64,000 nt of DNA, taken from NCBI GenBank assembly GCA_010015805.1, contig ML978122.1, forward strand, positions 1,584,453 to 1,648,452. Reading direction: 5' to 3'. How positions within the stretch are numbered: position 1 is the first letter of the stretch; each line of letters starts with the position of its first letter. Origin of the DNA: Rhizodiscina lignyota (Eukaryota). This document shows positions 15,558-38,280 of this stretch, in pieces. A model generated the notes under the pieces. That model saw only the letters and a list, made by a program, of their open reading frames with translations. It made no database searches and was not told where the DNA came from. The translations under genes and the position numbers were made by a program.

Positions 15558-16478
15558 ATGAATCCTTCTACGATGAACACACTCACCAAGATGGCCCGGG
15601 ACAGCTCGACCCCTTCCCTTAAGCCACCACTCGTCGCCGGCAATGTCAAGATCATCAACATATCCGCTTCTGGAAAGATCCAGCAGATCGTCATATCACG
15701 GAAGAAGCTCATCGACTTCTCGCGGTGGGCCGAGGAAGAGCTTGAGGGAATACCAATGCGCCCTATGGTGGAATTACGCCTTCCACATCCGGTGGTCCCG
15801 GCAGCTCTTGCAATCGTAGTCAACTGGATGAACAAGGTCTGGGGAAAGCGACCCACGACTCCCATCGCTATCTCCGACATCCAGGATATCAACTACGACA
15901 AGGCACTGCTTGTGTATCAGATCATTCACATGTTCGACATCAAAGCACGGGCCGTGACTACGGATCTCTACCCTTGGTTCACATCATTTTTCAAAGAGGG
16001 CAACAAACTCACAGCATATCAAATATGGAATACGTGGCACACATTCCGGCCTAACATCTCCATTGTCTCAAACATGACCCGCTCAGTGGCCCGTCGTGGC
16101 TGGGATGACTTTCCTGCAGATGAACAAGTCAAATTGGAGGAGCTTGGCGAGAAAGAGCCTGAGTTTCTCGAGCAGGTGCACGAACATGAGCAAAAATACA
16201 TGGAGTACCTTGAGCGCGTGGAGAAGCGTGCTCAACGCGCAGAAGCTAAGGCCAAGCGAGAGGAGCAACAGGCGAAGTGGGCGGCAAAGCAGGCTCGCCA
16301 TCAAGCGTACCAAGGAAAGAAGCAGGCTGTGGTGGGAGACCAGCACGAGCGGAGGGCATTGGCGGCGGATGGACAGCAGCTGCTTTCTGACAAAGATGCA
16401 TTCCACGTAATGCGAGGCGGTGTCGCGTTTGCGACTATTGTAGAGCCGAAGTCGAAGACTGTCGCGGAGGCTGCATAG
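15558..16478 (+). CDS. Hypothetical protein with a charged coiled-coil C-terminus (possibly divergent BTB-like N-terminus)
   Basis: 306-aa intronless ORF with an E/K/R/Q/A-rich helical tail. The BTB-like call is only a loose pattern impression. Confidence 0.7.
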   Translation: MNPSTMNTLTKMARDSSTPSLKPPLVAGNVKIINISASGKIQQIVISRKKLIDFSRWAEEELEGIPMRPMVELRLPHPVVPAALAIVVNWMNKVWGKRPTTPIAISDIQDINYDKALLVYQIIHMFDIKARAVTTDLYPWFTSFFKEGNKLTAYQIWNTWHTFRPNISIVSNMTRSVARRGWDDFPADEQVKLEELGEKEPEFLEQVHEHEQKYMEYLERVEKRAQRAEAKAKREEQQAKWAAKQARHQAYQGKKQAVVGDQHERRALAADGQQLLSDKDAFHVMRGGVAFATIVEPKSKTVAEAA

Positions 16479-17139
16479 AGGACGACTGGATCACTTCGTT
16501 ACTTCCTTTTTTACTTCCTTCTACAAATGACTTCAAATCAGAAGCACTCCGGCGTTGTTTCATGACTGTCTTTTAGGAGAAACAATGAGAGGTCCATAGG
16601 AAAATCAAGATTTTGGAATCATACTAAACCCTTTCTTTGTCACTTCATCGCCATGGTAATGCTCTATTGTGCAGTTCGGGATTCGAATAGCAACTCTGAA
16701 CAAGATGACGATGACGGTCCAAAACACTTCCAAAGCCTTGGAGAGGCTTTAACAAGACAAAAGTCGCGACTTCTAGTAAGGCATGTTCCAGCTGGGCCCG
16801 CCTGAGAGTGACAAAGGTTGCGCAACTTGGACGCATCTAACTGCTAAGATGCACGGTATTTTCGATTATGATTGGTTATGTTCATTCAGACTGTGCGGCT
16901 TTTACAGGTGGCGGCTAAGGCATATTGCATTGAGCTTTCGTTGATGTTCTTCCTTCTGTTGAAGAGCAAAACACATCCATGCTACACGCTTTCCATGGCC
17001 ATAGAGGTCAACAATCTGTTACTCTCGAGGTCGGGTGAAGGTATTGTCCTTGAAGATGAGTGAGCCGTCTCAAAAGAGCGCAAGTTTCACATTGTAGAGA
17101 GCCAAATGCGATCAGTTTTAAAGCAGCTCTGAAATGTGA

Positions 17140-18534
<1,395 letters not shown>

Positions 18535-18990
18535 ATCTAAAAGTTCATTCCGTCCTGCATGTAGATACCTATGGGAATTGTCAAAAAGTTTTTGGGTTCT
18601 GTGGTTGAAGCATTTTGTCTTCGTTTATGTGTTGTTGCGAAACGATACCCCCTGATTGGTCACGTTGAACTGGAGAGACGCTGTCAGGGTTCACGGATCT
18701 TGCCTCGATGTTTGCCGATACTGTAGCTTCACAGCTGATAGAGGAACCAGGTTGCTAACCTCCAAGTACCACAGGATCTGCCTGCCGAGGAGATATATCC
18801 GATATATAGATGCCTTTCGATTGCTAGTTGTCACTACAGCGCTCTCACCACGGCCGCTTACTACATAGATTCTAGATACAGGCAAGTCCCGGCCAGCATA
18901 ACCTTTTTAGGCATCTGCTCGATTCTAGAAAGTTCAGGGGTCCAAGTTAAACGACACGCCGTTTTAACCACTAAGGACACCTAGAATGGC

Positions 18991-19479
18991 TCACAGGAGA
19001 CCGCTAAGGGGTGCCAACAGTCTAGCAGCTAGGCTTGGCCTGCTATATGTCCGCTCTAGCCTGAGGGATTTCAGCTTCCAACTGTTGTTGGTGAATTGCC
19101 ACGTCTCGTAGTAATAGCCCCCTCCTCTGACTTCAAGAGGAATGATTCCAAGGACAGAAGGATAGATAATTTGATCTTCCATGCACCAAATGGCCTCAAC
19201 GTCCCCGTTTGGTATTTCTTCTAGCTCACCACAACCGACGTGATGCAATGTCTGGGCGCTTCGAAATAGACTTTGAAGGTCGTGTACGAAATCCGCGGGG
19301 GAGATGTAGTTGAAGTTAAATGATCCGCTGCTCTGGATTGAACCATCTGGGTTATGAAAGGAGAGTGTGGCATCCGGTAATGCAATAGCTTCCAAGGCGC
19401 TCCATTGTTTAGTATCGATGTATCGGCAATATTTGGCTTTCATGGCTCGAATACCATCAGCGACTTCGTGTGAGACCAT
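18991..19479 (-). CDS. SnoaL-like / NTF2-fold protein (BaiE/scytalone dehydratase-like)
   Basis: Motifs IRAMKAKYCRYIDTKQW, TLHHVG, AIWCMED, GGGYYYETW, WKLKSLRLER. ATG at 19479. Confidence 0.85.
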   Translation of the reverse strand: MVSHEVADGIRAMKAKYCRYIDTKQWSALEAIALPDATLSFHNPDGSIQSSGSFNFNYISPADFVHDLQSLFRSAQTLHHVGCGELEEIPNGDVEAIWCMEDQIIYPSVLGIIPLEVRGGGYYYETWQFTNNSWKLKSLRLERTYSRPSLAARLLAPLSGLL

Positions 19480-19699
19480 TGTTGGGTGCTCTAAAGGCCG
19501 GGGGAATTGATGCAATGGGAATTTGAATTGGAAATTGCAACAACGCCGATTTATCAGGCGCTGTCTCAAGGGTGTCAATGAGTCAATTAAATACCGATTA
19601 TTTATGGGCAAAAGGCATGCCGACGGATGAATTTATTGATCCGCCGGCGTCGCCATGCGCGAAGACTCCGCTGCGATGGATGGGCACAGTGGAGGAAAT

Positions 19700-19709
19700 G
19701 GGGTCTCCG
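19700..19709 (-). promoter_or_regulatory. Putative cluster-TF site CGGAGACCCC upstream of the SnoaL gene
   Basis: Instance of the CGG-N2-3-CCCC motif recurring in cluster promoters. Confidence 0.5.
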
Positions 19710-20106
19710 GTCATGTTGCGGGCCGCGCCAGAGCGCGCTAAACGTGCGAAGTGATATTGTTGTGTCTAACAGAGCCTCATACTTTCTTAGCAAGCAAACT
19801 CAGATAACGAGACCTGCGGAGTAGGCTGTCGTGTATACAGAGCAAAATCCTTCAGCGCTCTATTCGAATCACCTGGCATCTCGGAGGAACCAGGATGTTC
19901 TCGTAATGAAGTTCATCGAAGCACTGAAAAACCGGAGAGCAGATGCGTCCCATTTTCTGAACAGCGATACCAAAGCGGCTTCGCTGGTGCTCATCTTTCA
20001 GCGCCAGAGAAGGGCGTTGAATCTCGTCTACTGGCACAACATGATCCTTACCCTTTTCTAGATCTCTTCTGAGTATATTATTGTTATTATCTAATTTCAA
20101 GATCGT

Positions 20107-22914
20107 CTAATGTAGGATTTGATAGAGACGGAATGCCACACTTGCCCTAAGTCCTGAGAGTAACTGCTGCCCTCGTGTTAGGGAAGATATCGCTTTGTGG
20201 CTGCCCTGGCTCTGTGAAGCATCCTTTGACCATAGGACAAGAGTAGAGAAAAAAATGGCATACGGTATGTAGGGATGCTCTGCCGTGGCTGTTTGGCATG
20301 CGCGTTTGATGCTTGGCCCTTGGTCTGAGTCCAGGTATGACTCGGGACTGCCACTGTGGCTTGCAGAATCAAAAATGGACGATTCACGCCCGTACATCCA
20401 CTCGACGAGAGTTATAAGACAGCAGGCATGCCAAGAAGAAATCATCCCATTACTGTTCGCTGCCCACGCTAGCACCTCACGCTGCTCTTCTTTAAGAGTG
20501 CTCCTCTGATTACTGGTCAGATCATTCTGTCTCGAGCTGTACGAGAAGTGTCGATGGAGCAGCTCGAGATCCGCATGGATAACCAGATTTATGCAATGGT
20601 AGATAATCAGATTTTCAGGAGCCGCTCGACCAGAGCCAAGTTCCATTTGGAGCCATTTTTCGCAGGCCAGAGTCACGTAATCACGCTTTGACAGAGGATC
20701 CCCCGGCGACGGGCCGGCTCTTGTGATGGAAGATGCCGAGTCACGCACGACAAGCCAAACGGAAGGGCCGAGCGCCGCTAAACAGCTAAGCCCACGCGGT
20801 CTCGAGTCTGAGCCCGACATGATTTGTGCAGGCGTAAGCATCCATGTCAGAGTCTCAGTCAGACGAGTTGCATGATCCTTCTGAGGATCCTCACTTCCCG
20901 ACCTGCGGCAGAGCATATCGATATATTTTGATGATAGCGCCGGTGGTCGTCTTGCAAGAAGCACGCGATACAGATCCAAGATGATCAGTGCCTCAAGTAC
21001 GCTGGTGTCAGAGTAAATATCCAACCGTGTTTGACAAGCAGGAAGTGCAGAACCAACCTAATGTCGACTTTGGTGTAAGCAGTCTCCTTTTTCGAGAGAG
21101 CATAATGCTGCGCCGCCTCTAGCAAATGGCCGTGGTATGCCTCCGCAAACTCGTGAGTCCTCCTGTCGCCGCTGCAGTAGCCGTACAGTTCTAGCAGGAT
21201 GAACTACCGATTGTCAGACAAAAAAATGTCCCTTTTTGCCGGAATAGAGTAGCGTGAGGAGTCATACTGTCTTCACAACCACCAGCCACTCCGATGGATC
21301 ATTCGAAAGTTCGTCGACAGATGTGCTGCAATTGAACTAGTGGAGAAAGTCAAAAAGTCAAGCACGAAACTTAGGCGTACGGAGGATTGAACAACTACCT
21401 TCCTCAAAACCAGCCTCCTCGAATCATTATACATGGCCATGGCCATCTTGAGGCTTCCTTCGACAGAACAAAAGAGCCCTCCAACGGCCGCTAGTGCTAG
21501 AACGTAATGCGCGTCAGGATGTCGGCCGAGACATAGATCCTCAAATATGGGAAAGGACGGAGGAATATGCCTCCAAAACAGATTCAGAAAAATTTTCAGA
21601 ACTTGTGCGTCGTAGATGGCTAGATTTGGTGGATCGGAATAGTACAGCTTGCCAGACGTTTCGTCCGCCTCGGATGGACTGGATGTGCGCGAATGATGAT
21701 TAAAGTACCGACGGATCATAGACGAAAGTAGCGGAAAGTCGGGCGGTAGGTCATGGCAGGTATTTACGAGCTCTTGCGGCGGCTGAGGCATTGTCCCTAG
21801 CAGGCCCAAGAATGGCCCTTCTATAAGCTCAAAGGGGTCAGAACGATCCATGAAAGCCCCTGAAATCTAGACATATATCAGCACCGCTACCGGGTCAGGA
21901 GAAACGAGGTTAAGGAATTCTCATCGTACAGAAGTTTGTGAGACAGCAGGACAGTATCCATCTGCGTCGAAGCCAGTGCCGAACCACATGGCCATGGCGT
22001 CTTGGGCGAACAGACCGGAGTCACCGAGGACTCCTCCGACAGAGGGTCTTTCGATGCTCTGGCAAGGCTCACACGGCTGTGTCCTTGGAAGAGCCAGATA
22101 GGCAGGTTGGGTTCCAGCAGGCAGAGCTAGGCTTCGATTCTCGGCCACCCATAGACCACTCTGAGTGCACGGCTCGGTGCTCGTAGACATCTGCTCCACT
22201 TGGAAAACAGAGTTTGAATCTGAGGACGGGGATGGGTCGACAGTGTGTTCTTGAGACCCGCAAAACGCACTTTCGGCGGTCGCGGTGACCGGCCACAGAG
22301 GTGTAGCTTGATGTGCATCTCTTGTCGACTCGGAGAAAAAGCACTGCAGGCCACTCTCTTGACAAGATTGACACGGCTCTCTTCCACTGCAGCGAATCTT
22401 GCGCCTCCGGCAGTGGTCACACGCGACGCGAATCCTCTTTCGACTGGTGCCGCCGCCGTACGCATCTAGGTCGCCTTGTCCCCAGGCATCCTCAGCATGG
22501 CACGTCTCTAGATGCAGCTTCCGCACATCTGCACGGCGAAAGGACCGGTCGCAACACGGACACCGGAACGGCTTTTCGTTAGTATCTATGAGACAGATGT
22601 CAGTGGTGTGCTCGAGCATTGGGTCGGTTCAAATACATACGGGTGCGTCGGTGTCGTAGCAAGTGCTCCGAACGTGCGAAGCGTGCTTGGCATATATCAC
22701 ACTGAAGAGCAGCCAAAGGTCAGCCCAGGTCAGTCATTTTGGCCCCAGACGGTGCAGAGAGGTGAAGGCCAAGGCACATCGCAGATTGGCAGATTGGCGA
22801 AGATGGAGCTGACATTGGGCCCAGCAATTCAGCATTCGAGTCGACAGGAAGACATACTGTTTTGTCCTTCCGCGGCGCAGAGTGCCCTGTCTTTGTCGCC
22901 GTCGCAGACTGCAT
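20107..22914 (-). CDS. Hybrid transcription factor: two C2H2 fingers, Zn(II)2Cys6 domain and fungal TF regulatory domain
   Basis: Spliced reading gives CDICQARFARSEHLLRHRRTH, then TNEKPFRCPCCDRSFRRADVRKLHLETCH, then ACDHCRRRKIRCSGREPCQSCQESGLQC. About six GT-AG introns keep the frame to the stop at 20107. The start at 22914 is inferred from intron 22702-22857. Confidence 0.88.
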
Positions 22915-23255
22915 CCTCTGCCGCGTCCACTGCAGCAGCCCGTCAACTTCTAGGACGAGGAACCCAAAAGTCGTGGTTCGAACACCACAAGAGAAAGGCA
23001 AACAGAGGATGCGGGCGGCATGCGGGGAAGTCCGGGGAAAAGTGGGTTGGTTGGTTTGGGGTTGATTTGGGGGGTGGCGCCGGGTGGTTCGTTTGTCCAA
23101 CAAGTCAGACGTCGCCCTCTCAAAGAGCACCGTTATCCGCGAGACTCCCACACCAACACCTGACGAGCTTTGAGCGTGTGGTCTCACATGCACCAGATAC
23201 CAATCTGGTTCGATGGGGCATTGGAGGCTCCCGGCGCTAAGGATGGGCGTGGGAT

Positions 23256-23285
23256 GGGGTACCGGCACTAGTGACGGGGGTTCCG
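23256..23285 (-). promoter_or_regulatory. Two putative sites (CGGTACCCC, CGGAACCCC) upstream of the hybrid TF
   Basis: GGGGTACCG at 23256-23264 and GGGGTTCCG at 23277-23285. Confidence 0.5.
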
Positions 23286-23378
23286 ACATGACTTGCATTT
23301 GCAGTTACTGTATGTCCATCGACACGCCTTAACAACACCCTTGGTTGAAGAGTCGGCACAATCGCCAGTTGTCTTCCT

Positions 23379-23972
23379 CTAGGCGCTGAGGTGTTTCTGA
23401 CTTGCCGGAATATCGTTGTTTTTGCCGAGGTCCTCCCGCAATGTCACGCCGTTGACGACAACCGGCTGGCAGTCTTGCAACACAAAGATCATCCTGGCCC
23501 ATTCGCTGTCTGATGTGTTCCGCCATGCATGCGATGTACCACGCTGAACACACACATCTCCAGCCTTCATGATCCTCTTCTCCCCGGATTCGAGGATGGC
23601 CTCCACACTGCCGTACACAACAATACCAAAATCAAGACTGCGTGTGCGGTGCATCATGCTCTCCGGCCCTGGGGCAAAGTCGACCGCTCTGCACACGCTC
23701 CCACCAGGGTTCACTAGGCCGATGTCGCCGCTGCTCATGATTGCCTGATGCTTGTGAATATCCTCATCGTTATTCAAGGATGGCGGACTCTCGCAGGTGG
23801 TATAAAGAACGGCAAAACTCATCGTGTTGCCGTGGAAAGCTTTCCAGTGCGCTGGTCTGGATGATACAAAATATTCCTTGCCGGAAGCATCGTGCCCCGT
23901 GATATTGACGTTGACTTCGGGAAGCCCTTGGGACAGTTGATTCGTATTTTCAATCCCGGCTTGCGGTGCCAT
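23379..23972 (-). CDS. Cupin-domain protein (Cupin_2, fungal metabolic-cluster type)
   Basis: Motifs ITGHDASGK, DFAPG...MHRTRSLDFGIV (motif 1) and GDVCVQRGTSHAWRN (motif 2). Intronless. Confidence 0.9.
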   Translation of the reverse strand: MAPQAGIENTNQLSQGLPEVNVNITGHDASGKEYFVSSRPAHWKAFHGNTMSFAVLYTTCESPPSLNNDEDIHKHQAIMSSGDIGLVNPGGSVCRAVDFAPGPESMMHRTRSLDFGIVVYGSVEAILESGEKRIMKAGDVCVQRGTSHAWRNTSDSEWARMIFVLQDCQPVVVNGVTLREDLGKNNDIPASQKHLSA

Positions 23973-24287
23973 CGTTAATGTTGCGCGAGGTAGCTTTGCA
24001 CCGTCTGGATTCTAGATCACAGTTAAACACAAATGACTTTTTTGTTATGAGCAAGGAGCAGAAAACGATGACCCTGGGTGACTTGTCGTCACGGTTATCA
24101 GTCTACTTATGGTGATACGTGATGGAAGATTCAAACCCTCGAATCTCAGGATGGGATCTGGGGCCATCCGGCTTCCCCCCAATCCATCCGTCCACCACCC
24201 CTGGGTTGCTTTACTTACTTTCCCCACGAAGTCACTCATTCTATTATCCGAAGTAGTCCGTCGAATGCCCAGTGGCGTCTTGCCCTT

Positions 24288-24323
24288 CGGTACCCCACGT
24301 TCGAACTTGACTTGCGGTGCCCC
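24288..24323 (+). promoter_or_regulatory. Two putative sites (CGGTACCCC, CGGTGCCCC) in the cupin/monooxygenase divergent promoter
   Basis: At 24288-24296 and 24315-24323. A further CGGCTTCCCC lies at 24169-24178. Confidence 0.5.
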
Positions 24324-24646
24324 ACGGGGTTGTAGTGAACAGATTGATCGAACGACGGCCGAAGCTTCCGAACGGGTTGCCGTGGGACATAGGGGCTGGG
24401 ACTGAGTTTCGCATCACTGGAGGAGCTGACTGGCCTCACAACGGCTGGCTCAGACAGGAGATGGAGGTGAAACCGAAGCGCACCATGCAAGATTATAAGT
24501 CCATCTGTCTGCTGTCCTTGTAATCGGTTTAGGCAGCTGGGCCTGTGTCTTTTTTCTGCCATTTCTTCTTCTTTTTATTACATTTACTTCAAACTGCTGG
24601 AACTTTGAAACACTTATCCCCTGATTTAAGAGAAGGAACTGTGAAG

Positions 24647-27093
24647 ATGTCAAACACCGATCTAACGGGAATCTTGCCAGGGCTTGTTACCTGTAGAGTC
24701 TCGATCGTTGGCGGTGGGATCGGGGGTCTTACGGCTGCCATAGCCCTGCGCCGAGCAGGACATGAAGTACATGTGAGCAAGTCCGATTCCTTCCTGGCAT
24801 CAGCTGGTATATGGACGCGTGTTAACCCCGTTGACTCACAGGTTTACGAGCAGTCAAGCTTCGCAAGTGAAACCGGTGCGGCAATTCATCTTACTCCAAA
24901 CGCAAACAGTGTCCTTCACCAGTTAGGGGTTGATCATGAAGGCAATGGTGGGGATCGACTTGGCATGGTAAGTAGGTTGCTGGTTACTCGGGTCTGCTCC
25001 AAGTGATGTGGCTCATATTGCGCCGCAGGTGCGCTTTTATAACTCTGCTGGAGACCTCCTGAGAACCCTGGACGTGACAGCTCAGGCTCATCGCTGGCAA
25101 ATGGTAAGAAGGAGGCTCTGGAATCTTCGGAAAGTCTTCAAGTCTCTGATTTTTCTCAGAACTGGCTCCAAACATATCGAATTGGCCTGCATCGTCACCT
25201 AAAGGAAACTGCCCTGTCACTGGACGGTACCGGGGCTCCAGTCCAACTCCACACATCAAGTCGGATAATGGCCGTGAATCCACACAAGGCCATAATCACC
25301 TTGGAGGGCGGGGAGACTATTAAAGCAGACGTCGTCGTTGGAGCTGACGGCGTCCGATCCCGGGCTCGGCTTGGAATATCCGAAGAAAGAAAGTTCGTAG
25401 CGGAGAAAGCAATCCAGAATGCCTTTCGGTTCATGATTCCGATCCAAAGAATCAAGGACAATCCACAGACAACCAACTTTCTGGATACCCTGAACTCTAT
25501 GGACATGTACTACGCCGACGACCGCAAAGTTGTCCAGTACCTCTGTGAAGGCGGAACCTCAGTCAATTTTGTCTGTTGCCATCCCGCTCACCTCACCGGT
25601 GAGTATCAGGAGGGCTACAACCATAAGACGTCAATAGGGGCCTTAATCGAGGTATACAAGTCCTTTAAACCGGCTCTGCTGGATGTGATGGCGCTGGTAG
25701 ACGAAGCCGACCTCAAAATCCATCCACTTCTGGACATAGACACGCTTCCAACCTACACGAATGACAGGCTAGTCGTGTTGGGAGACGCAGCACACCCTTT
25801 CACGCCTCATCTGGCCCAAGGTGCAGCCATGGCAATAGAGGATGGCGCCTCACTTGGTGTCATGTTGTCTGGACTGGATACCAAGGATGACATCCCGGAA
25901 CGGCTGCAACTGTACAACAAGGCTCGCCATGGAAGAGCATCACTAATTCAGGACATGTCCCGCATGACGGGCCATGAACCAACTCGATCCAACAGCGGCG
26001 CTCAGATTCAGAAATGGAAAGGTGAGATACATCGGTCCCCTTTCAACTCAGCGAGCTACGAACTTACCTGAACGCTCTCATAGTTCACGAATTTCTTTTT
26101 TATGGGTTTAGCCATGACGAGATCCACTTTTCATCGCAGATACTCCGAGAATATAAATGGTCCAAAGCGCCGAGACTCTATTGGAGACAGCCGATTTGTT
26201 TCGGGCCGCTGGCTGGGCCTCGGCAGGCAGGCTTAGTGTTTCCTCGTCCTGATGGCCTTTCCACCGCGGTTTCTATAACTGCTTCCATCCGCTTTCGCAC
26301 GAGCGCGACTCTACTACGCAATCTGTTCCCTTCTCCCGCGTACCGGTTTTCCGAAACGGACACGGTTGCCGAAGCTAGTTTCACGTTTCAAACGATTGAC
26401 AACTTGAGCTGGCTAGGACACAAAGGATACGAGCTGGTCATGTTCCAGATCCACGGCGTACAGGTCGAGAGCAGAGATGGCCATTTTACCAAGGGGTCCT
26501 ACATTGCTGTGGTCCTGGAGAACCTTGCAGATCCGATTGTTTCTGGTCGTGAGGAACTTGGCTGGCCGAAGCTGTATTCCGAGATCAACTTCAACCATAA
26601 CGCCGGCGTGGGAGGCGATCTGGCCGTCGAGCTATCTTGGAGAGGTGTGAAATGGGCGTCGTTCTCTTGGAAGCAGCTGCGGGAAACCGAGAACTCGCAT
26701 CGGCCGACGCCTGCCCTTGTTCACAGTGACGTGCAGTCGAATGGTACCCATTTCAACAACAACAGCCACTTGAACGGAGCGAGCCGCGAGCAACCCGGGC
26801 AAGAACACATGTTCGTGCATAAGTACATTCCCGCAACTACGGACTCCCCATGCAAGGCGCTTGCTGATGCAGACTACACTGTTCTGATTCCTCCAACCAA
26901 ATCCAAGGCGGAGTGGCAGCAGGTAGCGTCCGATGCCGGCTTTGAGTTCCTGCCGCAGACAGACATGCAGCTCCCCACCTTGTCCCATATAGCTAACCGC
27001 TTGTCGGAGCTGCCCATGTTCGGGCTCGTCGAGGCTACAGTGAAGAAGGTAAATGGGCAGGACGACTTCTCAGCAGCCAAGAGACTCGAGTAA
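24647..27093 (+). CDS. FAD-dependent monooxygenase (salicylate-hydroxylase-like) fused to a C-terminal acetoacetate-decarboxylase-like domain
   Basis: IVGGGIGGL, VGADGVRS, LGDAAHPFTPHLAQGAAMAIEDG. Intron 26022-26083 joins in frame to WRQPICFGPLAGPRQ...ENLADPIVSGREELGWPK. Four introns in total. Confidence 0.88.
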
Positions 27094-27171
27094 GGTTGGC
27101 CGCAATATAGTAGCTTGTCCCTCGTTCAGGCTGTTACGTGGGATAGTCTGTTTCCTACATAGAATTACAAT

Positions 27172-27557
27172 CATAGTGGCCATCAATCAATTGATCGACC
27201 AGTGGCTGATTGAAATCAACTGTTGATCCGACTGATTGGACAGACTCATTATAAGACTATTCAGTTGAGTTGAGTCAGTTGACCGACCAGCGACTGATTG
27301 ATCGATCGAATATTTTAAGCCTTAAAGTCCTGGTTGTTTAGAATAGAGCTATATACTAAATTTTCTTAATCTGATTTTCACACTGGCTTCTATCCGACTC
27401 CTTCATATGTAAGTGCACGGCTATATTTTGTATAGGACACCTCTGCTAAGTCAGTTGCAACTGACGACTGATTAAATTTTACAGTTGAAACAGTCGGTAC
27501 GATTGATTATCTAACCAGGTTGCAATTTGACCGATCGACTGATTGATGGTCACTATA
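27172..27557. mobile_element. Non-autonomous MITE-like DNA transposon (possibly hAT-type)
   Basis: Terminal inverted repeats of about 25 bp: left ATAGTGGCCATCAATCAATTGATCG, right reverse-complement ATAGTGACCATCAATCAGTCGATCG. Flanking direct repeat TTACAAT/TTACAAC. Several subterminal CGACTGATTG copies, AT-rich core, no ORF. Confidence 0.75.
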
Positions 27558-27763
27558 TTACAACATCTGTCGTTGAAATCTCTCATCTCCATTGGTTTCT
27601 CTATCCTCAGACGGAGTACAATAAATTGCACCATGTGCCCACTCCCTAGACGGCTAGTAGCCAGAGCTTCACTGACTGAGCACACACCCTTGTATCACCG
27701 CACGGCTGCTTATATTTCTGCGATCTGCCTAAAACCAGTGGGCCTACTATGGGAACAGCTAGA

Positions 27764-29572
27764 CTATAGGCTTTTCGGAATGATGGGTAACTGGAGATAG
27801 TTCTCAACTCCCTCGCCGAAGTGAATGGTGTTCAATCCACCAAAACGTTCGGTACTTCTGTCTGTAGTGTTTTCATGTCTGAATAGACCGCTACCCCCTG
27901 TGTCCCCTGACGCCACCTCCAGAACTAGGGTGTCGCCCTCGCTCATGATGACGTTCGTTGGCCAGATTTCCACGTCTACGGCGTAGATTATACCGGGTTC
28001 GAGGAGTTCTTCGTCGGTGGAGAAGTATTGGCGATAAGGCAGGTAGCTTCGATGCTGAGAGTGTATCTCATCCGTCTTCCTAAGGCTGCATCGGAGCCAG
28101 CCCTTGGTCACCGGCACAGGATCACCAACCGCCCCAGTGTATAGGATTTCCTTGCCCTTGGCATCAAGGTGTCTCAACGTCACAAAGATATCCATGTCTG
28201 AGGGCACCTGGTCTGGCTGCTCGTCGCAAGGGGAGACAGACACATTGAGATGTGCCGCAATGTGGCCAGTAATCTCGGTCTCCGTCTTGAAAGATGCCAA
28301 AAATGTAACAAACTCGGGCTTTGTGACAGACCCGAGTGCTTTGTACGTGACGGCGGACTTCGGAGATTCTCTCGCTGGCCGATCTGTCGTGAGTCTAGAG
28401 TCCTGCGTGAGGTAAAAGCGCACATACTCTGTGCGAGCAATCGGCCATTCTCGTTCCTCGCGGCGCTGGAAGAGTTTCTCTGCCTCGGCATTATTGTGGC
28501 CAACGTCGCCTTTGCGCAGGAGAACGCTGACAGACGCGATCTTGCCGGGCACTGACCAGCCAACCTCGTCCTTGCCCTTGAGCCATGCATCGAGGAATCC
28601 TCGCTGAAGTTCGACCTCATCTTTGTAATAAAACGGCAGATCATGCCTTCCCGCCATGAAACGCAAAAATTTGAACTCGGAGCTGGCAAACATGTAGCCT
28701 ACTACGTTTCCGCGCAGATGTAGGCCCGAATTTCCTAAGTTGGCAACTGAAAGCAGGGGAACTTTGATGTCTTCGAGCCTGAAGTCCCGAGAAGCGTAAT
28801 ACTCTTGGTCACGGAAACGATATTTCTCGTTGTCAATGTTCTGATCCCGTCGATTGTCCTTGAGTTCCTCCTCTGAGAGATCACCTTCTATAGTGTCATC
28901 GCCTCGGCCAGCGGCAGCGCGGCCGGGTCGGCCGTACTGGTTCGTGATGACCTGTCGATTCCACCAGAAACGTATGAATGCGTCCGATAGAATCCCGCCG
29001 TGGCGGCACCGATCGCGATAGTAGTCGGACATGCCTTCCCATGGGATGATGCATGCAAGGCCGCGCGGTTGCCGGGCTGCGACGCGCCACTGAGTGCCGG
29101 CGAAATAGCTCACGCCCAGCAGACCGACTTTGCCGTTCGACCAGGGCCGCTGCGCAGCCCATTCGATTGCATGGCAGAAAGCGTTGGCAGTGTCGTTGGA
29201 CATGGAGTCGAGATAACCAGGAGACTGACCGAAGCCCCTTTCGTCGCAGCGCACAACTGCATATCCATGGCGGGTCCAGAACACTGGATCAGGCGTTTCC
29301 CAAGCAGAGTACTTGGATTTCTGCTCTGGCTCCACTTCAGAGAACGACTGCGGGTGGAACTTGTTGTACTCGATATCCTTTCCGTACGGTCCATAGGTCA
29401 TAATTACTGGCAGTGCAGTTCCTACGGCAGTCGAGGAGCTCAGGGGTCGATAGATATTGCACCGGATTGGATAATCGGAATTAGGAATAGGAATGCTGAC
29501 ATTTTTGTCAAAAAGAACATTATTCTCTTCATCGTAGAAGGTTTCTTGAATGTCCTTGATTTTGTTCGGCAT
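27764..29572 (-). CDS. CocE/NonD family alpha/beta hydrolase (peptidase S15-like, with C-terminal PepX_C-like domain)
   Basis: Motifs PVIMTYGPYGKD, DERGFGQSPG, WSNGKVGLLGVSYFAG (nucleophile G-x-S-Y-x-G), GRHDLPFY, VTKGWLRCSLRK, VEIWPT. Intronless, 602 aa. Confidence 0.92.
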   Translation of the reverse strand: MPNKIKDIQETFYDEENNVLFDKNVSIPIPNSDYPIRCNIYRPLSSSTAVGTALPVIMTYGPYGKDIEYNKFHPQSFSEVEPEQKSKYSAWETPDPVFWTRHGYAVVRCDERGFGQSPGYLDSMSNDTANAFCHAIEWAAQRPWSNGKVGLLGVSYFAGTQWRVAARQPRGLACIIPWEGMSDYYRDRCRHGGILSDAFIRFWWNRQVITNQYGRPGRAAAGRGDDTIEGDLSEEELKDNRRDQNIDNEKYRFRDQEYYASRDFRLEDIKVPLLSVANLGNSGLHLRGNVVGYMFASSEFKFLRFMAGRHDLPFYYKDEVELQRGFLDAWLKGKDEVGWSVPGKIASVSVLLRKGDVGHNNAEAEKLFQRREEREWPIARTEYVRFYLTQDSRLTTDRPARESPKSAVTYKALGSVTKPEFVTFLASFKTETEITGHIAAHLNVSVSPCDEQPDQVPSDMDIFVTLRHLDAKGKEILYTGAVGDPVPVTKGWLRCSLRKTDEIHSQHRSYLPYRQYFSTDEELLEPGIIYAVDVEIWPTNVIMSEGDTLVLEVASGDTGGSGLFRHENTTDRSTERFGGLNTIHFGEGVENYLQLPIIPKSL

Positions 29573-29779
29573 ACCTAGGTATTGAATGATTGTTGAGCGA
29601 TAAAGACAAAATAATTCTCGTTAGATCGCAGCCGGCTCAGACGTGAAGTGAGAACCACTTTTTGAACCTACATACATACTTGCACCTGCGTTTAGGTGCA
29701 GAGGTTATTCTTCAGCCGACAAACAGATCCATCCTACGAAGTATGGGGAGCTCTCCAGCGCATCCGGAAAGGGGCCAAG

Positions 29780-29789
29780 CGGAAACCCC
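29780..29789 (+). promoter_or_regulatory. Putative site CGGAAACCCC in the CocE/TF2 divergent promoter
   Basis: Motif instance read directly. Confidence 0.5.
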
Positions 29790-29912
29790 AGGGCGCCGAT
29801 CCGGCCGGAGGGATACTCTAAAAGTGGAAACCCCAACGACCTCGCTCCCATCTAATATTGATCTAACTTATGATTCACTGCGGCGCCCGCCCTGGTATGA
29901 AGAGGCACCAGG

Positions 29913-31747
29913 ATGACCAACACAGGGCAGCTCCATAATCCTACCGAGTCGGTCCTCTTGTCACAAGGTCAACCGACCAAATGGGAGACGCGTGAGGCAA
30001 TCATAACGCCGGATGATGATTTTCTCGTCAATTTCAAGGAGCGACTGATTCACAGTGAGGACGGGAAAATTAGCGGTGACCAGCACCTGCAGGGGTTTCA
30101 GGAGCTGCGTTTGCCACTTAGCTCTACGCAGCATCAAGTAAGCTCTGTTCGCGCCTCGTGCTTGGAGCTGTAGTAGCCTGATAGAGACTGACTGGCATCG
30201 AGTAGGATGAATCAAGGCATTTCACATACCCATTATCCGTGCTGGGTAGTAGCCCTGTTGGCTCAAACTTCAACTTGGAAGACGAGTTGGCAAGTCGACG
30301 CCCATCGTTTAATTCAACGCTCGAGTGCCACATCTACCTTGATGGGCTTCAGATTCGAAGTCTTTGGGATCCCGATGCCATTCTACCACCGTATCTTGAT
30401 GCTGCCCTGGCAAGTCTCACATGCCTAATGGGGGAGGACATTGATCATCCCAGAAGTCATTACCTATTCATGACCGGAGTCAGGTTGCTCCTTGTGATGC
30501 TCGAAGTCGACAATAGAGAAGCCCGGAAGGTCGAAGGGGCACTGGCCGTTAGTATGCCCTATGGGTGTCTCTGTGATTATTCGAATACTCACAGTCCACG
30601 TCTAGGCACTCTTATTGTCTTCTTGGGGTCTCTTAACCTCCTGTCGATCGGATTGGAGAATTGCCACGAACACGCTAACATTCTTCATGGCGGTGAGCTT
30701 GGACAGTGAATGTTAGACCCATCCATCATATTCTGACTATCTATCGATACTAGATGATGAGACGGCTGACACCTGCAACTTCCGTCTCTCCTGGCGTGTT
30801 TCCCAGGACTGCAAGGTACAGGATCCCATCGTGGCTTGCAGAACAATCCTTGTTCATTGAAGAAGGCTAGCTGAATTGATATACATAGCCCATATAGTGC
30901 CCTTGTCCGCTTCGGCTTCCTTGTTGACACTTTGGCGGCAATTCATCATAACCAAGCTCCCGGATTTTCGACTAGCGAATTAAGGATATCCATGCTCTCC
31001 TCGGACCATTCTTTCAAAGTAGTGTACTACAGTTTGCTCAGCGGAAGTTCAGTCATACCGGAAGATGTTCGGAACGATGAGGATGGGCTACTTCTGCTCA
31101 CAGCCATATTGTCAGATACACTCTTTCTACAGCGAAATATTTGCTCGATCACTCTTTCTGGCAACAGCAATAGACGGAGTCCTCACCTAGCATTTCAAGA
31201 AGCCAATCCATTTGCCGCTCTGACGCCCAGAGGCGAGTACCATCGCCAGAAACTGATCATGTCAAATGGCCTGGATCGGTGGCTTTCCCATTTTCGGCAC
31301 ACTACATCGACAAACGTCCTAGCATTTCACCACTTCTGCACGCTTTGCTTGCTATGTCCAGACTTGGGGCTCCTCGCCCAGCGCGCAAGCTATCCTCCAC
31401 AGGGAGGACCAGAGCAAGAGCGCCTAAGAGAAGTTGGGTTACCCAGGGATCATGGCCACAAGGTGATGATTACCGAGGAAGCTTTGCACGCGGCGTGGAG
31501 AGTAGTGGATCAGGTGAACGTGAAAACGCAGCGAGACAAATACTCTATCTGGCTTCCGATCGTGATTTTCTTCTCGGCTCTGGTGGTTTGGTGTAAAGCG
31601 AAAGAGACTGAGGATGAAACAACAGGCCACCGGTACACATCTAGGAAGACTCTAGCAGCTTTTGCCAGGGAGCTGGATGAACTGCCTTGGCCATGTTGCA
31701 GGGTCATGTCAGCCACTCTAGCTGATCTCATGCGGGAGGAGAAGTAG
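29913..31747 (+). CDS. Fungal transcription-factor-like protein apparently lacking a DNA-binding domain
   Basis: Five exons link through GT-AG introns (donors gtaagc, gttagt, gtgagc, gtacag). The C-terminus HAAWRVVD...WLPIVIFFSALVVW resembles the end of the 20107-22914 TF (SWHACCLI...YIPYAIFFSTLVLW). No Cys/His finger found. Start uncertain. Confidence 0.65.
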
Positions 31748-32377
31748 TTTTAATGAGAGATGTGACCTACTCTCAGTAAAATGAGGACACTGTATTTCAG
31801 ACTCGGTAGAGTAGCTCATGCATCTGAGATGATCTTGTTTGTTACCGATCCTATTCCATCAATTTCGAGCCGCACCACGTCACCTATCTCTAGTCTGAAT
31901 CTTGCAAACTCAACTCTAGCCCCCAAAAGAAAGGTCTGTTATGGACCTAATTGAGCCTCGTAAGCGCACGTCCCCGATCGGCGTCGACGGTGGTTGTAGA
32001 AGGCCGAGGCTGCGCAATCGGTATCAACCCCACGAACCGGTTCCTGGAGAAATCCGACGATAATCTTGGGGTCAGCCGTGCTGATTGTGCCGCTTACCAC
32101 ATCTGGAGCCTGGTTAAGTCTGCCCGTTCATTTCGATATACCCGGAAACCTCGATGAGACAAGCTGTGCTTTGAATCGGGCTTTCTTTATGATTTCGGTA
32201 TCATCGGTCTTTGGGACGGGCCGTTTTATAAACCCAGCACAATGGCCTTGAGCTCACCGTCTATTTCTGCCATCTTATATGCTTTGAACACATCCGCCAA
32301 GAGAAACAAGAGAAAGGAACAACGCCGAGTTGGCTGCGCGAACTTCGATCAAATACTTTGGCTTTTTTTCATTAACC

Positions 32378-33448
32378 ATGGCCGGCCCTAATAAGATCAA
32401 TTTGCAACGGCTATCGTATGTCATCTATGAGCACCCCGACATGGAGAGCTTTGAACGCTTCGCTGAAGACTTCGGCTTCGAGTCCGTGGGTAAGGCGGGA
32501 GGTAGAGATGTCTTCTTCCGTGGCTACGGGCCAGACCCATTCGTCTACGTTGCGCGGCTATCACCGAATGGAAGCCCTAAGAGGTTTTATGGTGCTGGTT
32601 TTGTTGCGCGCACAGCTCAAGACTTTGATAGAGCATGCCAGATGCAGGGAGCAGAGGTGAAAGATGTCTCTCACCGCCCAGGGTCTGGCAAGATGGTCAG
32701 TGTGCCCGACCCTAATGGCTTCGTTATCGAGATTGTCTACGGCCAGGAAGAAAAGATTGTGCCGAGACAAGGGATTTCCGTTGTCGAGGGTGGACGTCCA
32801 ATTGTGAATGGGGCTGTCCAGAAATCTCGCAAAGGTAGGTGCATCAGTCCATATTTCCTACACGCCACTCGGCTGTTAAACCTCCCCAACCAAGACATCT
32901 CGGAGAACTCACTTCATTTTAAAGGTGTTTTCAACCGTATGAGCAGCAACCCTGCAAAGGTTCATAAGATAGGACACTTCGGATACATGACGGACAACTA
33001 CAAGGACACTTGCGCTTGGTATGGCGGACATTTCAACCTCAAAGCCTCAGATATCGTGCATCGCCCGGGCGATGAGTCTGCCGAACTGATGTGTTTCTTC
33101 CACTTGGACCTTGGGGCTGAGTACTCGGACCATCACTGTCTCCTCGTGGCGGGCCACCACGGCAATGGGAGTGGAACACGCATCCATCATTCGTCGTTCG
33201 AGGTTGAAGATCTGGACACCCAGATGATGGGCCACCAGTGGCTGGCGGAGAAGGGATATAAACCCATGTGGGGTGTTGGCAGGCACGTCATGGGCTCGCA
33301 GATCTTTGACTACTGGTACGACACCACAGGGTTTATCATTGAGCACTACGCGGACGGCGACGTGGTCAACCAAGACACGCCAACTTGTCGGTCTGCTGGT
33401 ACTCCAGCAGCAATCTGGGGCCCACCCTTGCCTGTCAAATGGGATTAA
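32378..33448 (+). CDS. VOC-family extradiol ring-cleavage dioxygenase (trihydroxytoluene oxygenase/DntD-like)
   Basis: Two VOC domains with HKIGHFG, DHHC, IHHSSFEV, WGVGRHVMGSQIFDYWYD, FIIEHYADGD. In-frame 90-nt intron at 32835-32924. Confidence 0.9.
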   Translation: MAGPNKINLQRLSYVIYEHPDMESFERFAEDFGFESVGKAGGRDVFFRGYGPDPFVYVARLSPNGSPKRFYGAGFVARTAQDFDRACQMQGAEVKDVSHRPGSGKMVSVPDPNGFVIEIVYGQEEKIVPRQGISVVEGGRPIVNGAVQKSRKGRCISPYFLHATRLLNLPNQDISENSLHFKGVFNRMSSNPAKVHKIGHFGYMTDNYKDTCAWYGGHFNLKASDIVHRPGDESAELMCFFHLDLGAEYSDHHCLLVAGHHGNGSGTRIHHSSFEVEDLDTQMMGHQWLAEKGYKPMWGVGRHVMGSQIFDYWYDTTGFIIEHYADGDVVNQDTPTCRSAGTPAAIWGPPLPVKWD

Positions 33449-33731
33449 TTGTATCTTGAATAATATATAGAAAAGGGTGTAAAAGATGGGCCTGCCCTGG
33501 ATGCTTCCAAATCCGGTGCGTTTCACGTGACTCCAAGAGTCTACCTAGAAATAAGTGCTCCTGATGCAAATGCAGGTGGTCCCTTAGCCGGTTAGAGGTT
33601 ACTCCGGGTCGGAGCCGAGCTGAACGTAGGGAAAAATAGAAAAAGCGATGTCGAAGCTGATGAGGCGGAACTAACGTCATACCCCACAACGGGGTATGTA
33701 ATGGGGTCCCACGGTCCTTAGGGCTCAACAT

Positions 33732-33741
33732 GGGGTTACCG
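33732..33741 (-). promoter_or_regulatory. Putative site CGGTAACCCC upstream of the GST-like gene
   Basis: GGGGTTACCG on the + strand. Confidence 0.45.
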
Positions 33742-34034
33742 AGCCTGCGTCAACGGCGTTCCCACAGTCCCATCTGCCCTTGGACCGGAAACATTAGAAG
33801 CAATAGCAGGTAGCTTCTATAATACAGTATCTCACGTCATGAATTTACGTTCTAGGATCAACATGGAGTGCAGCGTGGGCTTGCTTACGTCCATCTCTCC
33901 GGTTCGAATATTGAACATCCTTAGTCTTATTGTTATCCTCCGCGGCTCTATACCATAGTTGATTTCTGCCTCAGCCTTCATCACGCAGACCTGTTGCAAT
34001 ATCATATCCAACTTTATCACTGACCATTGTCAAG

Positions 34035-34958
34035 ATGGAGGCAGCATCCTACACTCTCCATCATCACAGATATTCCATCTGCTCTATTATGGTGAGATAC
34101 TGCATCGCTATTCGAGGGGAGCCCAAAAGCGGCATGTCCGAAGCGACATTCTTCGAAAAGGAGATAGACATCTTCGCAAACGAGCAGCTGTCCGAAGACT
34201 TCCTCTGCCATGTGAACCCAAAAGGCCAGGTATTGCTTAGTTTCCCCGGTCGCTCACCACTCTTCTGTTTCAATGACCACCTGACCATGCAATCAGGTCC
34301 CAGCGATTACCACTTCGAGTCTTGATCAGCCACTCTACGACAGTGTAACAATCACACATTATCTTGCCAGCTTATACCCAAGTCTGATGCCGCCATCTCA
34401 TCGTCAGCTGATTTCCAGCCTGATTGATCTCTTGCATAGCATCAATTTCTTTTCCTTGAGCTTCGCAGGGTCGAAGAACGGCGACCCTGCCGGACATATC
34501 AAGCAAGAAATTCAACGCCGACTGAGGAAAGATGTATCACCTAGGTACCGGGAAGCCTTAGAATATAAACTAGCAGTGTAGGTTCTGCATGGAGTCTCGC
34601 ACCTCAAGACTCTTAATCCCAGAACAATCATATCATGGCTGACTCTCTCCCAATTCACAGTCATGAAGCCGAGAAAGTCTACGGCCTGGGATCCGATTTT
34701 GTTACGAAAATGATCAGTCGCACCGAGAGTCTGCTCTTCATATGTCAACAGAATCTGCCAGAAGGGGCTAGGTGGATGCTTGGTTTACCACAACCCAGCG
34801 CTCTTGACGCACACCTGGTGACTTTTATAGCGAGACTGGAGGATGCGGGCAGAACGAATCTCGTGCCACCACGACTCTCAACATATTGTGCAGATGCGCG
34901 CGAGACTGAAGAGTGGAGGCGCATCATGCAAGGAAGAAAGACTGCCCCTGGCAGGTAG
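34035..34958 (+). CDS. Glutathione S-transferase-like protein
   Basis: YSICSIMVRY, EQLSEDFLCHVNPKGQ|VPAI, DSVTITHYL (GST N-terminal) and PSALDAHLVTFIARL (GST C-terminal). Two introns. Confidence 0.8.
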
Positions 34959-36030
34959 TAGGGTGACAACGTGGGCGTGAAAGTGGAGCATGTGAACTGC
35001 AGTCTATAGCATTCGCCCGCATCAACTTCCTCTGTCCCATGACATGGAGCACTTTCCAAGACAAGATCCTCACCCCTCCGACCTTTTGAGCGCACCATGA
35101 AGAGCTGCAGCCACCCCAACAATCCAGGCAGAGCAGTGGTCAAGTGGTGAGTTTCTGGCATGAGCAACAATACAGCGGCAAGCGGCCGGGTACGTATGTT
35201 AGCTAGAGCAACGTAAAACATGATAACATAGCAAACCTTCTCCACTTTCATGAATAACTTCACTACGTCGCCCCTGAGCTCCTCTTTCGAGGACGTCCTT
35301 TCCTGCCTACGTCAGAATCCTGACTTGGGTGATCTTGACATGGAGATTAACAGCGAATGGTAGTCGCTACAGGAACCGGAGGCATAGGACAGTCAGGCGC
35401 CCCATATTAAAGTCACTTTGACCTGGAAGTTGCTGCTGCTAGGAGCTGCTAGGTATTTCCGGCACCACCACCAATGACGACGAAGGGTTCGATCTACCCT
35501 CCAGAAGTGTTCTTACATGTATAAGACGAATCTCTCTCCTAACTGATTGCCTGTGAGCATCTAATGCTTAGTGACGGGAAACTGAATTGACCCCAAGTCG
35601 GGGCGACTGTCTGAGACTTGTTGGGCCGTTTGTGCGAGGTTGGTACAGCCAACTAAGCCCTCTTGCACGAGAGCACTTCTTCCCACTCCTACTTCCGGCA
35701 GACCCCACTCGGGGTCACCCGCATTCCGGGTGGAGTAGAAGTAAGTGTCGGAAGTGTCGGAACATCGGACACGGCTCGCGTCGCGAATGTGCCGATTGAG
35801 GCTGAAGGAGCCAATACTACAACTCCTCTCGTGCTGAACCGATATGGAAAAGGCCCTTCCCTTATCCTACTCCGCAATTTCTCCGCAAAGCTTCTTCCCC
35901 CAGTAAACCTCTTACCCCGCAAATGCGCCTTAACCAACGGCCTCTGCAGTACAAGCTTAATGCCCACCCAATTAACCCACAACTGCGAACTACTTTTGGC
36001 TTTCAAACACCAAAACACAGGGAGATCGAT

Positions 36031-36054
36031 GGGGTTCCGCCGCGGGGGACTCCG
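36031..36054 (-). promoter_or_regulatory. Two putative sites (CGGAACCCC, CGGAGTCCCC) upstream of the P450
   Basis: GGGGTTCCG at 36031-36039 and GGGGACTCCG at 36045-36054. Confidence 0.5.
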
Positions 36055-36404
36055 ACATGAAGAGGAGACACTACACGAACACGACGCTATTTCAGGGAAA
36101 AAAGTGTTTTTTTATCGGCTACTCCTTCACAGGGATTGTGTGGAGAGAATGTCGTTACGGGTCATAGCAGGTATGCATGTCTACGAGACAATAGTCACGG
36201 CACATATATAGAGGCAGGAAGCCTGTCCACCTCGAAAATACGATGTTTCTATTCCTTCTTAACTTTTATTTTCCGCTCTCTTATTTAGCTGCTCTATTTT
36301 CACGCTATTATCATCAATATAAACCTTAAGTTGCGCGAATTCCTTCCCCTTGTACGAAGTCCTTGGTCCTCTACATTGTTGCCTCCCTGGCCCGTCAGGA
36401 CATC

Positions 36405-38125
36405 ATGTTTCTCGCATTATCCTTGGCAACAATTTTCAAAACCTCTATTGCTATTGTTAGCATCTCCATGTTGACATGAATTGGGCTAAATGGTCTTTAA
36501 CACATAAATACAGGCAATCGGATATTTCCTGTGCCAATGTGGCTACAATGTCTTGTTCCATCCTCTACGACACTACCCTGGCCCCAAGCTATGGGCAATG
36601 ACCCGCATCCCTTACACGTGCATGTTCCTGTCGGGAAAGGCGCACATTCGGATTCTCGAGTTCCACAAGCAGTACGGTCCTGTGGTTCGAATTGCGCCGG
36701 AATTCTTGTCGATGAGTCACGAGGATGCCATGAAAGAGACCCGTGATCACCGCAAGGACGGCAAGGCTCTGCTGATGAAAGAACCTATTCATCATGCTGA
36801 TCTGCAGAAAACTCTTTTTGGCGCCACTCGCGACGACCATACGCGATATCGGCGGGCAGTGGCTCACGGTTTCTCTGCCAAGTCCATGCAGGATCAGCAG
36901 CCACTCATACAGACCTATATCAGTATGCTGATGAGACGTCTTCGTGAGCAGTGCGATGGAGGTTCAACGGCGTTGGACATGGTTAAATGGTTCAATTACG
37001 CAACCTTCGATGTCATTGGTGATCTATCGTTCGGTGAATCATTTGGATGTCTCGAAAACTCAGATTATCATCCGTGGGTCGCACTCATCTTCGATGTGGT
37101 CAAAGACTTGACGTGGAGGCTGAGTATGAAGCGTTATACGCTTCTTGCACCTCTCTTAAAGTACCTTATCCCGAAGCAATTGTCACGCAGGTTTGAGGAG
37201 CATAGCGAGCTGTCTCGAGCTAAATTGCAGAAGAGACTTGCTACTCTAACTGACCGGCCCGATTTCATTGGCTCGATGATTAAAGCTCGCTCGAAATCTG
37301 AAAATGTAAGCAAAACCGACGAAAACAAGTAATGGCACACTAAGGGGATTCGAAACAGAGTATTTCGCTCAGTGAAATCGAGACAGTCGCAGCCCAGCTC
37401 ATCATCGCCGGTTCCGAAACGACCGCCACGACTCTGTCCGCGACAACTTACTATCTAACTAGACATCCTCACGTGCTGGCAACGCTGTGTGCTGAAGTCC
37501 GCTCATCCTTCAGCAGCGAGAAGGAAATAAACCTGTTTAATGTGCAGAACCTACGTTACATGATGGCTGTCATTAACGAGTCGATGAGAATGTATCCCGC
37601 GACACCTGGCGGGCAGCCTCGTCAGGTTGATGAGAGCGGGGCTATGATTCTAGGGCAATATGTTCCTGGCGGTGTAAGTAAACCGGAATTCCACTACTTC
37701 GAATTTGATTCATTGACAAGCTTTGTGATGCAGACCAAGATTGAAATCTGGCAATGGGCGCTGTACCATAATCCACGCTGTTTCACAAGGCCCGACGATT
37801 TCATACCAGAGCGATGGCTAGATGACCCACATTTTGCAGCAGATAAGAAGGATGCTTTTCAGCCTTTTTCAGTTGGCCCGCGCAGCTGTATTGGCAGAAA
37901 GTGAGTTATAACAAGTCCCTAGACTTGGTGTTGTTGCTAACGATTATTTTGCTCATCAGCTTGGCATATGCTGAAATGCATCTGATTATAGCACGACTGG
38001 TGTGGAATTTTGATATTCGCTTGGCACAGGGATCAGACGATTGGGATCAAAGAAGCAATGTCCTTCTACTTTGGGAAAAGCCAGGTTTGTATATTTCTTT
38101 GGAGCCGAGGGAAATATCCTCATAG
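36405..38125 (+). CDS. Cytochrome P450 (CYP65/Tri11-like)
   Basis: FHPLRHYPGP, FDVIGDLSFGESFGCL, AGSETT, ESMR (ExxR), FIPERW, FSVGPRSCIG (haem Cys). Four introns. Confidence 0.93.
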
Positions 38126-38280
38126 TGCCATTCGGGGCTTGATTTGCAATGAATAATGATGGACTGTAAAGTAACCGATGCAAGAATGTTACCGGAGACA
38201 AATCCTCGAAGATCCTCTTTCGGCAAAACACAGGGAACGGGAGCCAATGCAGCGCCACAGCGTACAGCGGAGACATTAAT

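Follow-up and report, generated by a model that had tools for sequence, protein, structure and literature searches.

Fungi commonly have dual transcription factors (TFs), which carry C2H2 zinc fingers as well as a Zn2Cys6 zinc cluster; those that regulate melanin in plant pathogens are among them. The melanin regulators Cmr1, Pig1, Amr1 and BcSMR1 have two N-terminal C2H2 fingers, a Zn2Cys6 domain and a fungal_trans region, and are embedded in the gene cluster that they control, as described in the available parts of PMC10789848 and PMC5415576. In the accessible text of the latter, a review (Shelest 2017), both domains of Cmr1 are said to work in vivo, and the way in which their combination recognizes DNA is called obscure. 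Zinc clusters in general read CGG (PMC3334620, in the part available); as far as the accessible portions of three further sources go, a 2021 resource gives separate matrices to each domain (PMC8637145), a 2025 review of melanin gives no site (PMC12426039) and PMC8396895 has nothing further. No binding site for Cmr1-type factors was found in the portions of the literature examined, and neither a composite site for dual factors nor a description of the gene cluster considered here was found in a search whose scope excluded journals behind subscription and supplementary files (such as the motif files of PMC8637145). This cluster lies in a window (the whole stretch of DNA analysed, 64,000 nucleotides) of the genome of Rhizodiscina lignyota (33.4 Mb), at G000:C2:1584453-1648452; coordinates below are window positions. 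It comprises nine genes in 18991-38126, from a SnoaL-like gene to a cytochrome P450 gene, one of which encodes a dual TF, and its promoters share the word CGG-N2-4-CCCC, a candidate binding site of that TF.

A cluster-specific cis-element

The word CGG-N2-4-CCCC is a real and strong cis-element that is specific to the cluster. There are 15 sites (distinct CGG positions) in seven of the nine intergenic stretches of the cluster (5,805 bases, bounded by our own gene ends), whereas 0.74 would be expected from background non-coding DNA; this background comprises the 157,873 bases that fall in no long open frame within 40 stretches of the genome, each of 10 kb and taken at round coordinates. All promoters from SnoaL to P450 have a site, and each cluster gene has one at 110-375 bases from its assumed ATG. 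The two stretches without the word are the convergent gap between the FAD monooxygenase (FMO) and CocE/NonD hydrolase (CocE) genes, and the region before the GMC oxidoreductase gene that follows the cluster. The genic bases of the cluster (13,696) contain a single match (26840, in the FMO coding sequence). Enriched in the cluster promoters and scarce in coding DNA and in the flanks, the word is distributed as a pathway-specific cis-element would be.

A first-pass annotation of this DNA had proposed the narrower pattern CGG-N2-3-CCCC, and all 10 exact sites that it listed are present and intergenic. The word with one mismatch that it placed at 32143 is there too, and so, at 23282 and 36051, is the TCCGACATGA extension; the absence of a site before the GMC gene was also borne out. 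This narrower pattern occurs 10 times in the intergenic DNA, compared with 1.18 in dinucleotide shuffles (none of 2000 reaches 10) and 0.51 expected from the genomic non-coding background. The proposed spacer range was, however, too narrow: a spacer of 4 adds five sites (0.22 expected), and all seven spacer-4 matches in the window are in cluster promoters. The dioxygenase promoter needs no mismatch copy, because one of these five is an exact site within it. The assertion that there is no copy outside the cluster did not hold, as there are four in 1-18990 (383, 609, 3457 and 6058; that at 3457 is inside the open reading frame (ORF) of an aspartyl protease, the other three are apparently non-coding), in addition to the coding copy at 26840; 38127-64000 has none. 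Copies outside the cluster are at about the genomic background (1.3 per 10 kb; 3067 N2-3 matches in 33.4 Mb). The densest of the 40 background stretches has five copies, compared with 10 in the best 10 kb of the cluster.

The spacer profile of the intergenic DNA has 5, 6 and 7 matches at spacers of 2, 3 and 4, respectively, compared with about 0.7 each expected, falling to 3 and 2 at spacers of 5 and 6 and to 0-1 at other spacers (C runs being counted more than once). Among 180,224 patterns of a 3-mer, a three-wide spacer window and a 4-mer, CGG-N2-4-CCCC ranks first, with a -log10 p of 14.1, whereas for 300 pseudo-clusters, assembled from a pool of 116 background segments, the best pattern has a median of 6.3 and a maximum of 12.2. 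As CCCCR (R, purine) is by itself enriched in the cluster promoters, the association was also conditioned on C-runs: CGG is found 2-4 bases 5′ of 15 of the 43 intergenic C-runs of the cluster, compared with 20 of 522 in the background (Fisher p=1.5e-9), whereas the control triplet CCG is found at the same place in 3 of 43 compared with 26 of 522 (p=0.48). Thus, the two halves of the word are coupled in one orientation. The related word CGG-Nk-CTCCR was not enriched in the cluster intergenic DNA.

The sites occur singly, as direct pairs and as inverted pairs. The SnoaL promoter has one on the minus strand (19700..19709, spacer 3), 221-230 bases upstream of the ATG. The promoter of the TF gene has three, all on the minus strand: 23024..23034 (spacer 4), 110-120 bases upstream of the TF ATG; 23256..23264 (spacer 2); and 23277..23285 (spacer 2/3), which is a direct repeat at 21 bases from the second and has an extension in common with 36045-36054. 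In the divergent promoter of the cupin and FMO genes, the site at 24160..24170 (minus strand, spacer 4) shares a central CCGG with that at 24169..24178 (plus strand, spacer 3-5 owing to a run of six Cs), and two more on the plus strand, 24288..24296 and 24315..24323 (both spacer 2), are 359 and 332 bases upstream of the FMO ATG. Single sites are found in the divergent promoter of CocE and a second TF-like gene, TF2 (29780..29789, plus strand, spacer 3), about 300 bases upstream of the dioxygenase ATG (32068..32078, minus strand, spacer 4) and about 294 bases upstream of the GST-like ATG (33732..33741, minus strand, spacer 3). The P450 promoter has four: 35696..35706 (plus strand) and 35711..35721 (minus strand), both of spacer 4, which form the left and right arms of the inverted pair CGG-N4-CCCC-N4-GGGG-N4-CCG, followed by 36031..36039 (minus strand, spacer 2) and 36045..36054 (minus strand, spacer 3/4), the latter with the common extension and 351-360 bases upstream of the assumed P450 ATG. 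The sites starting at 23024, 24160, 32068, 35696 and 35711 were absent from the earlier list.

The triplet is in the form CGGA or CGGT in 11 of the 15 sites, compared with 18 of 53 in the background. The extended word CATGTCGGA-N1-2-CCCC has three places in the genome, two in the cluster (23277 and 36045) and the third in an ORF, and a genome-wide search with it found no unlinked target. A poorly designed pattern for paired sites, run against the genome, also had no match. Duplication of a promoter was rejected as the origin of the common words: a blastn comparison of the TF promoter with the other eight stretches gave short matches only (best E=0.084). Upstream of P450, at 35743-35770, there are also repeated (G/T)TCGGA words (GTGTCGGAA twice, and CATCGGA), possible extra zinc-cluster half-sites.

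The dual regulator and how it may read the word

The TF gene (20107..22914, minus strand) encodes two C2H2 fingers, a linker, a Zn2Cys6 domain and a middle-homology region. In our own gene model, with first introns at 22857-22702 and 22640-22586 (minus strand), the spliced protein has finger 1 (RSEHLLRH), finger 2 (RADVRKLH), 25 residues and then the Zn2Cys6 domain (PF00172, E=1e-11), whose pattern is the only one within the window. This model agrees with, and is borne out by, the full-length orthologue P0123. In the public model P0121, finger 1 is missing, as is the last third of the TF at the C-terminus; the DNA encodes both (window 22640-22914). A C-terminal fungal_trans region is suggested by PF04082 on P0123 and by the aligned region, single exons of the window being without a Pfam match. 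The finger helices are identical in all nine Trichoderma proteins parsed by pattern; relatives in Xylogone, A. hancockii and Beauveria keep RSEHL and RxDV, with linkers of 22-37 residues. Synteny in other fungi was read from accession numbers: those of the TF and CocE differ by 3 in each of the listed Trichoderma species, by 3-6 in B. bassiana and by 4 in A. hancockii. This proximity implies that the regulator travels with the core of the cluster across three classes. A metagenome scan for orthologous loci gave 11 loci, none of them orthologous.

Taking the word and the protein together, CGG-N2-4-CCCC is rather probably a composite site of the dual TF, read jointly by both of its domains and including autoregulation. 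Fingers of the RxEHL type read G(G/A)G (the Adr1/Mig1-type code). The zinc cluster would read CGG and the two C2H2 fingers the GGGG strand, on which GGG would fall to the RSEHL finger and the triplet after it to the RADV finger, and a linker of 22-37 residues would be flexible enough for spacers of 2-4. Because the sites occur singly as well as in direct and inverted pairs, the TF would bind each site as a unit. The A/T-rich bases 5′ of CGG (the common CATG extension) may be contacted by a basic arm that precedes the zinc cluster. In the presence of an aromatic substrate, the TF would activate the cluster genes, and it would raise its own level via the three sites in its own promoter. The first-pass annotation had also proposed a composite site read by both domains: the one-way coupling, a TF with the right domains and helices, and the sole Zn2Cys6 pattern of the window all agree with it, and the joint reading itself remains a prediction from sequence. 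One protein with both domains would explain the one-way CGG and GGGG word best.

Several observations weigh against this proposal. By the rules derived from Zif268 and Gal4/Hap1, finger 2, which bears the linker, is at the far end from CGG, and CGG is beside finger 1. With this non-colinear geometry, either the linker doubles back across some 11-13 base pairs or the domains bind in trans in a dimer; by arithmetic, the fold-back distance is about 40 angstrom, reachable for 25 residues. The base after CCCC, which finger 2 predicts to be a purine, is not informative (a purine in 14 of 15 sites, compared with 42 of 53 in the background). CCCCR alone is enriched in the cluster promoters (37 compared with 13.1), 28 of the 43 C-runs being without CGG, and CGG 3′ of the C-run is also mildly enriched (6 of 43 compared with 21 of 522, p=0.012), with several inverted CCCC/GGGG pairs. 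Seven of the 15 sites also fit the CreA consensus (SYGGRG). L015, another hybrid TF encoded in the genome (see below), has no site in its 10 kb, and the signal in the melanin promoters is not clean, a spacer of 5 in 2-kb promoters being equalled in 87 of 1000 shuffles when 13 spacers are allowed for, and, in 1-kb promoters at spacers of 2-6, reverse-order controls giving 8 and 6 compared with 9.

Chance or local composition, i.e., promoters rich in G/C runs that were chosen after the fact, is a very improbable origin of the word. The word does occur 3067 times in the genome, null sets come as close as 12.2 to the observed 14.1, and the background stretches were self-picked at round coordinates and re-used among the null sets; but none of the 2000 shuffles or 300 null sets reaches the observed value, the test conditioned on C-runs gives p=1.5e-9, the held-out spacer of 4 is enriched, and the densest background stretch has half as many copies as the best 10 kb of the cluster. 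It is unlikely, to a lesser degree, that two proteins occupy adjacent half-sites: a global C2H2 factor (of the CreA/Mig1 or Adr1/AmdX type) on GGGG, and the zinc cluster of the cluster TF or of another factor on CGG, the spacing reflecting competition or cooperation between both binders, for which AlcR and CreA at neighbouring sites are a precedent. The excess of CCCCR alone, that of the CreA consensus (37 compared with 21.5), the seven sites that fit it, the loose spacer and the non-colinear geometry would all suit such a pair of proteins. Yet eight of the 15 sites do not fit CreA, the stress response element (STRE, CCCCT) is at background level in the cluster intergenic DNA (7 compared with 6.3), a fixed orientation at 2-4 bases in seven promoters would be harder to evolve for two proteins than for one with both domains, and it is the TF's own fingers that are conserved across classes.

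In another reading, improbable to the same degree, the dual TF does bind the word, but either in trans, one subunit of a dimer placing its zinc cluster beside the fingers of its partner, or mainly through one domain that the second only assists. Such binding would accommodate a CGG that adjoins finger 1, away from the linker, and the inverted pairs at 35696-35721 and 24160-24178 also speak for it. No canonical Zn2Cys6 dimer site (two CGG at fixed spacing and orientation) was found in the cluster intergenic DNA; the best candidate, which also counts towards this reading, is CGG-N13-CCG, at six intergenic places compared with about one expected, three of them overlapping the 15 sites and three being in the dioxygenase promoter (31988, 32038 and 32205). 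These words have no common inner sequence and cover four promoters, compared with seven for CGG-N2-4-CCCC; moreover, four promoters have a single site, and the pairs differ in spacing (14, 21 and 27 bases, and inverted). Also in favour are the deletions in Cmr1, in which the zinc cluster is essential and the fingers contribute only (PMC5415576, in the part available).

Gene content and ancestry of the cluster

Apart from the TF, the cluster consists of a SnoaL-like gene (18991..19479, minus strand, PF13577); a cupin gene (23379..23972, minus strand, PF07883); a gene for an FMO followed by an acetoacetate-decarboxylase-like domain (24647..27093, plus strand), similar to 3-hydroxybenzoate/salicylate hydroxylases below cut-offs; the CocE gene (27764..29572, minus strand, TIGR00976 over cut-off); TF2 (29913..31747, plus strand); a gene of the VOC fold, similar to extradiol dioxygenases (32378..33448, plus strand, PF00903, with TIGR03213 below cut-off); a gene labelled GST-like by sequence resemblance (34035..34959, plus strand), with no tool match behind the label and no Pfam match for 33963-34322; and the P450 gene (36405..38126, plus strand). 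This set of enzymes suggests that an aromatic ester or amide is degraded or detoxified, and the cluster likely breaks down aromatic compounds. The convergent gap between FMO and CocE (27130-27560) is A/T-rich, with many degenerate GATTGA/CGAC words and zero motif sites, and is possibly a decayed repeat.

TF2 and CocE are divergent, with a promoter of 340 bases in common. TF2 is similar to fungal_trans proteins and has no Zn2Cys6 pattern, and a search upstream found no DNA-binding domain. Most fungal_trans proteins without a DNA-binding domain are, according to the available text of PMC10141177, the result of faulty annotation; TF2 appears to be a true one. If active at all, TF2 would be a co-regulator.

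The closest relative of the P450 is in Oidiodendron maius (84%), whereas its matches in Trichoderma are at most 51% and those with locus tags are far from the cluster; the P450 may have joined the cluster at a later stage and acquired its four sites. The regulon had been proposed to run from SnoaL to P450, and the coverage by the motif does so, although, as the P450 is without a close relative in Trichoderma, the P450 end is argued from its sites. The nearest matches of CocE (79%) and of the TF are in Trichoderma, and these patchy affinities across classes suggest horizontal transfer or mosaic assembly, as judged from sequence comparison.

Other dual regulators and comparison with known systems

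A screen of the genome for hybrid TFs gave 20 candidate loci and two hybrids, L014 and L015. L014, on another contig, is the Cmr1 orthologue: it lies between polyketide synthase (PKS) and reductase genes, has a linker of 27 residues, and its domain positions agree with those in the available text of PMC10789848. The cluster TF was itself considered as a Cmr1 orthologue and rejected, as it is not with PKS and naphthol reductase genes, the locus with these being L014. L015 has a different finger 2, a linker of 10 residues, and four matches at spacers of 3-5 in its 20-kb flanks.

The melanin genes were named by our own assignment; neither L081 nor L086 could be assigned as T4HNR, and the set excludes L080 and L084 (a second dehydratase-like gene and an FrsA-like gene). 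CGG-N5-CCCC occurs five times in four of the melanin promoters, compared with 0.2 genomic and a shuffle mean of 1.2. In five 1-kb promoters, there are four matches at a spacer of 5 compared with 0.6 (3 of 1000 shuffles), and nine at spacers of 2-6 compared with 2.4 (2 of 1000). The words, mostly with CGGA, are 150-240 bases upstream of CMR1 (L014:4812), SCD1 (L079, -201 and -237) and AYG1 (L085:5642). The AYG1 promoter, the only one held out, has three sites within 300 bases, one at a spacer of 5; the PKS1 promoter has no spacer-5 site. As a candidate site for the Cmr1 orthologue of this genome, CGG-N5-CCCC is suggestive only. A tentative and rather doubtful extension is that CGG-Nx-CCCC is the word of the whole family of dual factors, whose zinc cluster would fold back to lie next to finger 1, each paralogue having its own spacer (2-4 here, about 5 for Cmr1). 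Elsewhere, at L090:4955-5013 (G000:C2:2601955-2602013), two CCGGAA-N3-CCCCG words are 47 bases apart in the divergent promoter of an adenylation-domain gene and a P450, beside an O-methyltransferase-like gene (labels from ORF reading); no hybrid TF was identified nearby.

The 15 natural sites, with a DNA-binding region of 115 residues, make the question of recognition directly testable, and the sites mark out which genes are likely to form the regulon of this undescribed cluster, common to three fungal classes. If the family-wide reading were true, it would supply the missing binding site of Cmr1, Pig1 and Amr1, and a rule for finding targets from sequence. In vitro motifs for dual factors may reportedly be given by Lambert et al. 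2019 (Nat Genet), which would lower the novelty.

The cluster TF resembles the Cmr1-type regulators in its two N-terminal fingers and the Zn2Cys6 domain after them, in a probable fungal_trans region, in linker length (25 residues, and 27 in L014) and in being embedded in its presumed target cluster; it differs from them in its finger 2 and in a likely catabolic cluster. As with the sites of AflR, Tri6 and AlcR, a short word is found 100-400 bases upstream of most cluster genes, that of the regulator included, but those sites are read by one type of domain, whereas the word of this cluster combines a half-site of the zinc-cluster kind with a tract of the C2H2 type, across a loose spacer. With the sites of CreA/Mig1 and Adr1 it has in common the GGGG core, and the TF a finger 1 helix of the same RxEHL type, but just seven of the 15 sites fit SYGGRG, and an oriented CGG at 2-4 bases is not part of their sites. 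The CGG triplet is that of canonical Zn2Cys6 sites (PMC3334620, in the part available), whereas in place of a second CGG at a fixed distance, the partner half of the word is CCCC.

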